From Candidatus Thorarchaeota archaeon (GTDB lineage: Archaea > Asgardarchaeota > Thorarchaeia > Thorarchaeales > Thorarchaeaceae), in NCBI GenBank assembly GCA_016840855.1, contig JAEORO010000069.1, positions 1 to 64,000 on the forward strand: a DNA stretch of 64,000 nucleotides. Direction: 5' to 3'. Made by a program: the position numbers and the translations under genes. A model generated the notes under the pieces. It saw only the letters and a list, made by a program, of their open reading frames with translations. It ran no database searches and was not told where the DNA came from. Of the stretch, positions 46,497 to 48,613 are shown one piece after another (positions within the stretch are counted from its first letter, which is position 1; each line of letters begins with the position of its first letter).

Positions 46497-47009
46497 TTAG
46501 TAGCCATCGCTTCTATCGCGATAGCCACCGCTACGACGACGATCCCGGCCCCCATAACCACGGTCTCGACCGTAGCCTCCGCCTCCGCCGCCTCTTCCAT
46601 ATCCACGACCGCCACCACCATATCTTGGGCGACGCTCATGTTCCTGCTCACTCATGTCAACCTCACTATTTACCTCTTCGATAGCTGTTTCAGCTTCCTT
46701 TAGAGTACCATAGCGGCCGATATTGAGTCTTAAATGACCTTGAAAGAGGGTTGTGTACCCGTTCTCGAGTCGATAGGTCTTCTCAACTTCAACCTCATCA
46801 ATTGAGGTGTCCCAAAGGGGTACTGTCACAAGACCAGTATTGTCACCTACAATTGTATCACACACACGGTGTTGTTCTCCGTCAGCTCTGGATGCTACCT
46901 CCCTGACTTCACCTTTTTCAATTACCTTGAATGAAATGTTCACACTCTTCATTCTTGGCTTTAGTTCTGAAATTTGAGCTTCGATTGGCTCTCTATCTTG
47001 ATATCCCAT
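46497..47009 (-). CDS. ssb: Single OB-fold ssDNA-binding protein (crenarchaeal SSB/RPA type) with RGG/YGG tail
   Basis: VGDNTG, LWD, NGYTTLFQGHLRLNIGRYG and a low-complexity C-terminal tail. Confidence 0.92.
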   Translation of the reverse strand: MGYQDREPIEAQISELKPRMKSVNISFKVIEKGEVREVASRADGEQHRVCDTIVGDNTGLVTVPLWDTSIDEVEVEKTYRLENGYTTLFQGHLRLNIGRYGTLKEAETAIEEVNSEVDMSEQEHERRPRYGGGGRGYGRGGGGGGYGRDRGYGGRDRRRSGGYRDRSDGY

Positions 47010-47167
47010 GGTCTATCACCTTGGATTTGCAGGCTTTCAAAAGTAGAATCTTCCTCAGGGATCGCAAAGCTGTGCCTGGAACTCTGGAGCATGTGATTCA
47101 ATAATTTGAGGGCACTGCTGAGTTATGAAATAAATGAATCCCCTATAAGAATTCCCCATATAACATA

Positions 47168-47233
47168 AAAAGAGGTGGACGAAGGCGACACCGATGTGCC
47201 CGATTTTTTTGGGCTCGAGGTCCACCCTCTTTT
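47168..47233. terminator. Branched stem-loop flanked by A- and T-runs (bidirectional terminator-like)
   Basis: AAAAGAG-GTGGAC pairs with GTCCAC-C-CTCTTTT and encloses two small hairpins. Confidence 0.5.
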
Positions 47234-47246
47234 AGTTATTTTGAAC

Positions 47247-47414
47247 ATGAGTGGCGCTCCAGTACACACATTGCCAAGACACTTCTCTGAACCCTCGGGG
47301 GTGAGAGCACGAATTTCCCTGCAGATGGACATTCGTATACGCCAGTGCAATGCGGTCGCATCGTTCCCACGACTCTTCGACGATGCGTGGAGCAATGGGG
47401 CGTCTGCCATTCGT
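47247..47414. ncRNA. Candidate structured non-coding RNA of unknown family
   Basis: GC-rich island in an AT-rich intergenic region with six perfectly nested helices (see findings). The overlapping ORFs match no family I recognise. Strand unresolved. Confidence 0.55.
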
Positions 47415-47536
47415 CCGAAATAATGTATGCAACATACCAACATAAGTCCTTCCCCAACAGATAAAATGCGAAAACTATTCTATATCCATAGAATAACTTA
47501 TAAGAAATCCAGAGGTTTTGACGATTAGAGCCAGAG

Positions 47537-48613
47537 GTGGCATATTTGAACGGAATAAAGGTCGCAATTGTTGGAGTTGGCAACTGCGCAAGTGCACTTG
47601 TGCAAGGTGTTGAATTCTACAAGGATGCAAAAGCAGATGGTGATGTCATAGGCTTAACACATCCAGACTTTGCTGGTTATCATGTAAAGGACATTCGTTT
47701 TGTAGCAGCATTTGATGTAGCAGACACAAAAGTAGGCTTTGACCTAGCAGAAGCTATTTTCGCCAAACCAAACAATGTGATGCGTTTTGCAGAAGTGCCA
47801 ACAACCGGAGTCAAGGTCAGGAAAGGACAAGCGCTTGATGGAGTAGACGATATGCTCAAAGCATTAGTGAAAATCTCATCAGAAAAGGATACAGATGTTG
47901 TGAAAGTCCTCAAAGACTCTGGTGCAGAGATACTCATCAATCTAATTCCAGGTTCAGCTGAAGAAGCAACTAAGTTCTATGCGAAAGCAGCTCTTGATGC
48001 AGGATGTGCATACATAAATGGCACACCAATACCGATTGCTTCTGATTTGGAATGGAGTAAGAAATTCGAAGAGAAAGGACTTCCTCTTGTGGGAGATGAT
48101 ATTCAGGATCAATTGGGTTCAACAGTCTTTCATCGTAACATTTTACAGCTTCTTGTATCAAGAGGTGTCAGGGTGGATAAAAGCTATCAATTGGATGTAG
48201 GCGGTGGTGCAGAGTCACTCGATTCGCATTATAGGGGTCGAATGAGAAAACGAGGAGTGAAGAGTGAAGCCATCAGTCAGGATTTACCATATGATGCACC
48301 TCTAGTTGCTGGCTCAAGCGATTACGTTGATTTCATGGCTAACGCTAGAGACTCCTACTTTTACATCAATGGCCGACAATTTGGTGGAGCACCTATCAAA
48401 ATAGACATCCGAATGGAAGTTACTGATGGGCCAAATGCAGGTCCTATTTTAATGGATGCAATAAGAGGAACTAAGCTTGCTTTAAAGAGAGGTCTTGGCG
48501 GGTCTCTAGAATCAATCTCAGCTTATGGGTTTAAGATGCCTCCTGCTCCTACAACAATGTATCGAGCTGAAAGATGGGTTGAGGAGTTTCTATTAGGAAA
48601 AAGAAAGCTCTAG
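47537..48613 (+). CDS. ino1: myo-inositol-1-phosphate synthase
   Basis: GVGNCASALVQG, AAFDV..KVG.DL, GDDI, YQLDVGG and DGPNAG. Confidence 0.92.
   Translation: MAYLNGIKVAIVGVGNCASALVQGVEFYKDAKADGDVIGLTHPDFAGYHVKDIRFVAAFDVADTKVGFDLAEAIFAKPNNVMRFAEVPTTGVKVRKGQALDGVDDMLKALVKISSEKDTDVVKVLKDSGAEILINLIPGSAEEATKFYAKAALDAGCAYINGTPIPIASDLEWSKKFEEKGLPLVGDDIQDQLGSTVFHRNILQLLVSRGVRVDKSYQLDVGGGAESLDSHYRGRMRKRGVKSEAISQDLPYDAPLVAGSSDYVDFMANARDSYFYINGRQFGGAPIKIDIRMEVTDGPNAGPILMDAIRGTKLALKRGLGGSLESISAYGFKMPPAPTTMYRAERWVEEFLLGKRKL

Follow-up and report, generated by a model that had tools for sequence, protein, structure and literature searches.

A stand-alone gene for a stable non-coding RNA lies on the minus strand of a 64,000-nucleotide (nt) stretch of DNA, hereafter the window, from Candidatus Thorarchaeota archaeon (NCBI GenBank assembly GCA_016840855.1, contig JAEORO010000069.1, positions 1 to 64,000 of the forward strand). 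The gene occupies the 527-nt gap between an ssb-like gene (46497–47009, minus strand; Pfam Ssb-like_OB), whose OB-fold product carries an RGG-rich tail, and a divergent ino1 gene (plus strand; Pfam Inos-1-P_synth), and it runs from 47416 to about 47167, giving a product of 246–250 nt. No known family matches this RNA, which therefore constitutes a new one, and we infer that it acts in trans and not on an adjoining gene. Its most probable role, to which we give a rough probability of 0.55, is that of the scaffold of a lineage-specific, trans-acting ribonucleoprotein (RNP). The features by which structured non-coding RNA (ncRNA) genes are generally recognised were all found at this locus, namely conservation, the lack of a retained reading frame, compensatory changes in helices, a promoter and a terminator, and presence in RNA libraries. 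Together with the absence of the RNA from Rfam 15, they uphold the proposal of a new Asgard ncRNA that had been made in an earlier, sequence-only reading of the window.

Extent, strand and non-coding nature of the gene

The sequence-only reading had flagged about 170 nt (47247–47414) as a multi-helix element. This range does hold the core of the RNA, about two thirds of it, but the true element begins at 47416 and ends near 47167, some 80 nt further to the left. In a MAFFT alignment of 20 loci from the genus, the conserved block exceeds the flagged range and reaches from GGTGGACGA at 47174–47182 to TCGTCC at 47411–47416, and a covariance model (CM) matches 47171–47416 at 211.5 bits. In the RNA numbering used here, position 1 corresponds to 47416 of the window. 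The 5' end is placed at this G (GGACGA...), and the body of the molecule closes with ...UCGUCC-ACCUC at 47172, followed by UUUUU at 47171–47167. Folded at full length, the minus-strand RNA reaches a minimum free energy of -92.3 kcal/mol (z = -3.23; 1 of 200 shuffles as good) and reproduces the comparative model, whereas the flagged range folded alone (47240–47420) does no better than shuffles on either strand (z = -0.05 for plus, -0.46 for minus).

Four lines of evidence, drawn from wobble pairs, folding energy, the promoter and the 3' end, agree that the RNA is transcribed from the minus strand, contrary to the plus-strand orientation implicit in the sequence-only reading. Read in this direction, paired cells that are wobbles comprise 98 G-U/U-G against 7 A-C/C-A in the genus, and 217 against 91 in the family-wide MAFFT alignment. 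RNAalifold gives the 20 genus sequences -53.3 kcal/mol on the minus strand and -42.8 kcal/mol on the plus strand, and the full-length plus strand folds to -83.5 kcal/mol with z = -1.16 (24 of 200 shuffles as good). Upstream of the RNA, a TATA-like CTTATGT (47446–47440, minus strand) is centred about 27 nt before 47416 and is preceded by a purine-rich stretch (47453–47448) resembling the B-recognition element (BRE), the promoter as a whole spanning 47440–47453. Across the homologues, YTTAW starts at -31 to -29 from the first G in 61 of the 62 unique sequences with 50 nt of upstream sequence, with an A/G-rich stretch at -37 to -32 ahead of it, and the geometry of archaeal BRE/TATA promoters fits a start at about 47416. 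At the other end, the single-stranded tail ACCUC and the U-run (47167–47176, minus strand) form a likely terminator; the second tail position is C in 46 of 46 sequences, and the 12 nt after the tail are on average 50% T and 71% pyrimidine in 62 homologues. On the plus strand, T7 and T4 runs would fall inside the transcript.

None of the reading frames is retained across the 20 genus genomes. Interruptions fall at scattered points in the minus frames, the plus frame that opens with ATG is shortened to 5–28 amino acids (aa) in 8 of the 20, and the conserved block carries many insertions and deletions of 1–2 nt in the 20-locus alignment.

A covarying secondary structure

Comparative support for the fold was assessed at two depths. 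A covariance model (R1) was built and then used to collect homologues from other genera, after which 46 homologues were realigned with MAFFT, which is blind to structure, and scored against a pair model written from the window's own pairs. In this alignment, 84.0% of the cells at the 59 pairs are paired, against 38.0–46.5% when partners are slid; changes on both sides were seen at 50 of the 59 pairs (331 cells), and none of the five measures was reached by any of 500 shuffles. Within the genus, the minus-strand consensus of 20 sequences is paired in 98.0% of cells (36–49% in slid controls) and has 14 pairs changed on both sides; four of the five measures were reached by 0 of 500 shuffles and the fifth by 25 of 500.

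In the architecture that emerges, the 5' and 3' ends of the RNA base-pair with each other to form a long interrupted rod (P1, P1b and P1c), beyond which a short C-rich 3' tail stays single-stranded. This rod leads into P2, which carries the variable hairpin P2.1 and the P3/P3b stem, and the latter ends in a tight three-way junction with two further hairpins, HA and HB. The 3' strands of the rod (47177–47192, minus strand), which close the molecule, lie outside the range first flagged. P1 joins positions 1–6 (47411–47416, GGACGA) to 235–240 (47177–47182) and is paired in 46 of 46 sequences at five positions, with compensatory changes from A-U to G-C (2), C-G to U-A (1) and G-C to A-U (2). All pairs of P1b (8–11 with 231–234; 47406–47409 with 47183–47186) and P1c (13–18 with 225–230; 47399–47404 with 47187–47192) changed on both sides, as in GAAUC/GAUU and GGACA/UGUCC of other genera.

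P2 pairs positions 24–28 with 157–161 (GCUCC at 47389–47393 with GGAGC at 47256–47260, minus strand); it is paired in 83% of cells, three of its five pairs changed on both sides, and one homologue (L066) has CUCGAAC/GUUGCGAG instead. In P2.1 (31–37 with 53–59, within 47358–47386), all seven pairs changed on both sides and supply the top pairs in mutual information. The same holds for the changes in P3 (64–70 with 143–149; 7/7 pairs, 68.5% paired in the MAFFT alignment) and P3b (74–76 with 137–139; 3/3 pairs, 84% paired), whose 5' strands lie at 47347–47353 and 47341–47343, respectively, with both partners in 47268–47280 of the minus strand. Towards the 3' end, a small hairpin of the form GCCC-loop-GGGC (203–219; 47198–47214, minus strand) has 4/4 pairs changed on both sides and is 75% paired, although it is missing in two species of the genus.

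Hairpins HA and HB differ in kind, as their letters are kept in at least 90% of sequences despite the pairing. HA (81–108; 47309–47336, minus strand) is conserved in sequence as CGAAUGUCC...GGAGAUUCG around the loop AUCUGCAG and is 94% paired; its mismatch of 47330 opposite 47315 is purine-purine in 44 of 46 sequences (GG 32, AA 7, GA 3, AG 2). HB (111–133; 47284–47306, minus strand) reads CUCUCACC...GGU-UCA-GAGAG, with a 3-nt UCA bulge on its 3' strand. Its lower stem is 100% paired with 4/4 pairs changed on both sides, and its motif GGUUCAG is invariant in 20 of 20 genus sequences, with most positions kept family-wide in at least 90% of the 46. Near-invariant letters also mark the linker between P2 and the 3' hairpin (47215–47255, minus strand), which comprises a conserved AYGUUCA (47248–47242), an A-rich run and GGGUGGACCUC (47227–47217).

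The HA loop (47319–47326) also holds a self-complementary CUGCAG in 24 of 63 unique homologues, and two species have other 6-nt palindromes (GACGUC, AAAUUU). Among 34 unique loops, palindromes of at least 6 nt occur in seven, against 2.4 in shuffles; four of these represent one inherited CUGCAG and two are stem extensions. Loop-loop dimerisation through HA is a possibility.

The six complementary segment pairs noted in the sequence-only reading are all present at the coordinates given there, and five of its helices recur in the family model: its P2 and P3 under the same names, its P4 as HB, its P5 as lower HA and its P6 as P2.1. Its P1 (47247–47255 with 47406–47414) does not survive, for on the transcribed strand two G-T wobbles become C-A mismatches, and the right arm pairs instead with 47183–47192, beyond the flagged range, in the covarying P1b and P1c. 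The segment AATGGGGCGTCT, previously taken to be unpaired and free to form a pseudoknot, is the 5' strand of P1c, so that no pseudoknot is needed, and none stands out convincingly in mutual information, where the modelled helices rank top.

Several further pairings were considered and left out of the model. The pairs 77–102 and 111–189 covary, but each may rest on a single evolutionary event. RNAalifold and the minimum-energy fold both predict a helix CCACUC/GAGGGUGG, yet beyond three genera it does not covary; GGGUGG is retained in most other genera even though the 5' arm has changed there, so that the helix is not established. A pairing between GGGUGGAC and the 3' tail GUCCACCU was rejected because no compensating change accompanies the variation at tail position 241. 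Six species (L057, L058, L059, L061, L062 and L069) have another sequence in place of GGGUGGAC, and by eye this replacement pairs with the stretch that follows the small hairpin; this 'P5' pairing was omitted because its register differs between clades. Finally, inspection by eye of the small 3' hairpin and HB for a kink-turn (K-turn) found the required tandem G-A pairs absent.

A new family confined to one archaeal lineage

Searches against known families were uniformly negative at the site. The 4227 models of Rfam 15, which include self-cleaving ribozymes, small nuclear RNAs, Y, vault and 6S RNAs and introns, gave 0 matches in the 64-kb window at the gathering threshold, and at E <= 10 only noise from long non-coding RNA models appeared around the site. 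The same models run on 20 homologue loci returned one unrelated match (E = 1.8) and no consistent weak match. ARAGORN detected 0 transfer RNA (tRNA) or transfer-messenger RNA genes in the window and in 22 homologue loci, and the 3' strand of P1 adjoins the P1b strand and not a T-arm, as it would in a tRNA-like fold. The archaeal signal recognition particle (SRP) RNA (RF01857) and RNase P RNA (RF00373) were likewise rejected: neither model matches in the window, and a full-length SRP RNA (contig C216, 1871–2179; 87.7 bits) and an RNase P RNA (contig C183, 32492–32832; 163.9 bits) are encoded elsewhere in the same genome (G000). Listings and abstract openings in the literature on Asgard and Thorarchaeota non-coding and structured RNA contain no description of such an RNA.

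Within its lineage, the RNA is widespread. BLAST of 47100–47540 recovered it in 20 of 24 other genus genomes (68–86% identity) and in 0 of 16 genomes outside the genus. The covariance model R1 matched 23 of 28 genus genomes, including 7/7 of high quality. In the order as a whole it matched 67 of 87: 66 of the 85 other genomes in the family (f1), from 15 of its 16 genera, and 0/1 in the sister family. Matches in the order are full-length and occur once per genome, except in G020, where a second match is a fragment at a contig end. A family-wide model (R2) matched 24 of 26 f1 genomes drawn from the phylum; on 124 genomes of 26 other families of the phylum it gave a single 19.7-bit match (E = 0.004), read as noise. 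In its own genome the RNA is single-copy, and short-word BLAST of that genome yielded no sequence or complementary match beyond chance.

A scan for exact copies of the core motif in one genome per prokaryote species found 40 loci. All 29 archaeal loci match R2, and their record titles name Candidatus Thorarchaeota, Promethearchaeota, Hermodarchaeota or 'uncultured archaeon'. The 11 bacterial loci were rejected, matching at the motif itself only and with at most 16 bits, and the core motif had 0 matches in viral contigs.

Presence in RNA libraries

Small shares of the region's words occur in six metatranscriptome runs, of which four, from four studies, were compared over 46800–47800. Their contigs fall only on 47181–47404, are 33–231 nt long and reach a depth of up to 165; none of these runs has contigs on ssb or ino1. 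The RNA is thus present in RNA libraries, and the ending of the contig cover at the gene borders gives a weak hint only. In one contig of 231 nt, a loose end contains the CCAAGUCUU insertion typical of sister species, and the contig therefore represents the same RNA from a relative.

Genomic context across the family

The usual gene order comprises a CCG/Fer4 (HdrD/GlpC-like) gene, the RNA pointing toward it, and ino1 pointing away. Among distant loci with a tested 5'-side gene, ino1 is the divergent neighbour in 15 of 18, and the CCG gene lies on the 3' side of the RNA in 14 of 19 loci. Five genera (part of g1, g19, g22 in locus L056, g15 and g27) have an ssb-like gene, co-oriented with the RNA, placed between it and the CCG gene, whereas loci of ten other genera, along with some of those in g1 and g22, have the convergent CCG/Fer4 gene directly after the RNA. 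The neighbours seen comprise ino1, the CCG/Fer4 protein, the ssb-like protein and CpXC, and three loci (L047, L048 and L058) keep the RNA with other neighbours and without ino1. Owing to this variety of neighbours, the RNA is not tied to one downstream gene.

Proposed role and competing explanations

Helices that are conserved in sequence although paired, and that keep a mismatch or a bulge, usually mark protein-binding sites or tertiary contacts. In the RNP scaffold that we favour, HA and HB, with their mismatch and bulge, would be the sites of protein recognition, and the A-rich linker and the U-rich 3' end would offer plausible sites for Sm-like proteins. This role is preferred because these hairpins, in combination with the paired ends, the free C-rich tail, the U-rich end and the A-rich linker, recall protein-bound scaffold RNAs.

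The closest parallels in design are Y RNA with Ro60, 7SK, vault RNA and 6S RNA, which are protein-scaffold RNAs built as a rod of paired ends with a free pyrimidine- or U-rich 3' tail. The window RNA shares with them the ends paired in a long interrupted stem, the short single-stranded 3' tail and the U-rich end, as well as conserved helix sequences with a mismatch and a bulge as possible protein sites. It differs from them in having no Rfam match at E <= 10 and in an interior that is a branched multi-junction and not a loop or a promoter-like bubble; the Y RNA/Ro60 parallel is further loosened in that the gene for a Ro/TROVE protein was not found in the genome. Similarly, archaeal SRP RNA and RNase P RNA are like it in being single-copy and family-wide, in their size of 250–320 nt, and in their closing terminal helix and strong promoter, but it matches neither model, and both are encoded elsewhere in the genome. 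A third group comprises OLE, ROOL, GOLLD and the raiA motif RNA, orphan structured ncRNAs of medium to large size that were found by comparative genomics and are Rfam families, and for some of which multimer formation is known. Like these, the RNA has a stand-alone gene, many covarying helices and junctions, invariant unpaired letters, a lineage-restricted distribution, expression, and a function that cannot be deduced from its neighbours; unlike them, it is archaeal (Asgard) and not bacterial, measures about 250 nt and has no Rfam 15 match to any of them.

Several observations weigh against a scaffold role, or against parts of the case on which it is built. The Ro/TROVE domain (PF05731) was not found in genome G000, which is 92% complete, and inspection of the alignments by eye, with no guide-RNA finder run, showed no K-turn, box C/D or H/ACA motif. 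Box C/D RNAs carry RUGAUGA and CUGA with a K-turn, and in H/ACA RNAs an ACA box follows a pocket hairpin on its 3' side; here P1 is followed by a tail of NCC or NCU, not ANA. The sequence-conserved helices and invariant linker letters fit tertiary contacts of a ribozyme equally well. Because the homologues are related, shuffle controls overstate the significance of the covariation. The metatranscriptome data are assembled contigs, silent on strand, ends and abundance, and RNA libraries can hold DNA; since the contigs show neither strand nor ends, these rest on the promoter, terminator, G-U and energy arguments. Furthermore, genus g23 has no detectable copy: R1 matched 0 of 4 of its genomes, two of which are also blank with R2, and three g23 ino1 loci (L132, L133 and L134), from incomplete genomes, stay blank with filters off. 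The RNA is therefore either not indispensable to the family or has diverged there beyond the model.

A bolder and more tentative proposal, which we hold with much less confidence than the scaffold role, sees in the RNA the catalytic or organising subunit of an unseen Asgard-specific machine, either a new ribozyme class or a new RNP core. If it were an RNP core, a candidate partner would be the RGG-tailed OB-fold protein encoded directly downstream in five genera.

Foremost among the competing explanations is that the same minus-strand RNA works independently of protein, as a ribozyme or another catalytic or structural RNA, with the linker letters and the conserved helices forming an active site or tertiary core. 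Its roughly 60 pairs, its three multi-helix junctions, the invariant unpaired AYGUUCA and GGGUGGACCUC, the conservation of HA and HB in sequence, and the failure to find a partner protein would all suit such a molecule. Nevertheless, neither the window nor the 20 homologue loci match an Rfam 15 ribozyme at E <= 10, and mutual information singles out neither a pseudoknot nor a long-range tertiary pair. Moreover, efficient self-cleavage is not evident because a single 231-nt contig from an RNA library spans nearly the whole molecule. We consider this explanation unlikely, if still the best placed of the alternatives.

Less probable again is a trans-acting antisense or titrating regulator, whose single-stranded 3' tail CCACCUC or internal, Shine–Dalgarno-like GAGGGUGG would find its pairing partner in mRNAs or the small ribosomal subunit. 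The tail resembles the anti-Shine–Dalgarno end of 16S rRNA, its letters are strongly kept, and as CCACCUCU it complements AGAGGUGG, which lies just ahead of the ino1 start; in addition, small RNAs of the Sm/Hfq type typically have an A-rich linker and a U-rich end. Against this, the tail does not resemble an anti-Shine–Dalgarno sequence in several genera (CCCAUC, UCUUUU, ACUACU), and position 241 within it varies with no compensating change in GGGUG. The best complementarity elsewhere in the genome amounts to 13–14 identical letters or 17 of 18 (E >= 2.5), which is the level of chance, and a multi-junction fold of 250 nt far exceeds the needs of a seed-type regulator.

The idea that the RNA acts in cis on the co-oriented ssb-like gene, as a leader that is co-transcribed with it or as an attenuator, draws on the presence of that gene downstream on the same strand in five genera. 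It has little left in its favour and is largely refuted already, given that the RNA is kept where the next gene is the convergent CCG/Fer4 gene (ten other genera, part of g1 and g22), and that in the window a U-run, a TATA box (47148–47144) and a separate, near-invariant 110-nt ssb leader intervene between the RNA and ssb. The contigs from RNA libraries also end before 47181.

A plus-strand riboswitch or leader acting on ino1 is highly improbable, even though ino1 adjoins the RNA in 15 of the 18 distant loci and the plus strand also shows covariation, a consequence of helices being strand-symmetric. The wobble bias of 98:7 and 217:91 favours the minus strand, as do the fold scores (z = -1.16 vs -3.23), the conserved promoter faces the other way, and a plus-strand transcript would hold the T7 and T4 runs inside it. 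The RNA is moreover read away from ino1 and has its own promoter and U-rich end, most genera have no co-oriented gene after it, and the TATA box and putative operator of ino1 (47475–47504) lie downstream of the element, between it and the gene; in addition, L047, L048 and L058 keep the RNA without ino1. The riboswitch that the sequence-only reading had offered as one option is accordingly abandoned.

The other option raised there, an orphan mobile-element RNA such as the guide RNA of a transposon nuclease, a retron RNA or an intron remnant, fits in size and fold complexity and is just as improbable, for the RNA occurs in one copy per genome in the same chromosomal neighbourhood across the family, with no nuclease or reverse-transcriptase gene among the tested neighbours, no viral contig bearing the core motif and no Rfam match. 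Least credible of all is a small protein gene, in the Cys/His-rich minus frame or the plus frame beginning MSGAP; open frames of 58–115 aa do exist in the window, but stops and frame changes scattered over the 20 genus genomes, insertions and deletions of 1–2 nt, and substitutions that are compensatory in helices and not patterned by codon rule the coding reading out.

Observations on the adjoining genes

The ssb-like OB-fold protein (46497–47009, minus strand) has a C-terminal tail of about 50 residues rich in Gly, Arg and Tyr, of the RGG type. The 110 nt upstream of its start (47119 down to 47010, minus strand) are near-invariant in the 13 genus genomes that have ssb here, and a TTATA box at 47148–47144 lies about 27 nt upstream of the first base of this conserved block. 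The stretch 47010–47119 looks like a long, highly conserved leader of the ssb mRNA, which is possibly structured or autoregulatory.

On the other side, an inverted repeat ATTCTAT-N4-ATAGAAT stands directly upstream of the ino1 TATA box (CTTATAAG, 47497–47504), within 47475–47504, and is conserved in the aligned genus genomes. An identical 28-nt copy of this repeat occurs elsewhere in the genome (G000:C178:23519-23546; L136 2520–2547), upstream of a 213-aa open reading frame (ORF) without a Pfam match, and the inverted repeat is probably the operator of a shared transcription factor. Near the second copy, a 440-aa protein with a C-terminal small-GTPase domain of the Ras/Roc type is encoded (L136 3643–4965, G000:C178).

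The start of ino1 is more likely TTG at 47546 than GTG at 47537. The TTG is conserved in all loci that reach it but one, which has CTG (L019), and it follows 6 nt after GAGGTG; the GTG taken from the ORF listing is itself part of this Shine–Dalgarno sequence. In genus g23, the ino1 loci keep ino1 at 76–78% identity without a detectable RNA, and they offer a natural contrast group for a partner-gene search.

Significance for the lineage

With a defined sequence of 250 nt and a secondary-structure model at hand, the RNA can be transcribed, probed, used as bait for proteins and imaged, all without a cultured host. To our knowledge, large structured RNAs are few in archaea once rRNA, tRNA, SRP RNA and RNase P RNA are set aside, and none was found described for Asgard archaea in the literature searched. 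Should the bolder proposal of a new Asgard-specific machine be borne out, the RNA would join the very small number of large functional RNAs that are not known outside the archaeal relatives of eukaryotes. Taken together, the strong, conserved promoter, the roughly 60 covarying pairs, the presence in RNA libraries of four studies and the occurrence in 15 of 16 genera point to an RNA-borne function that this lineage needs.

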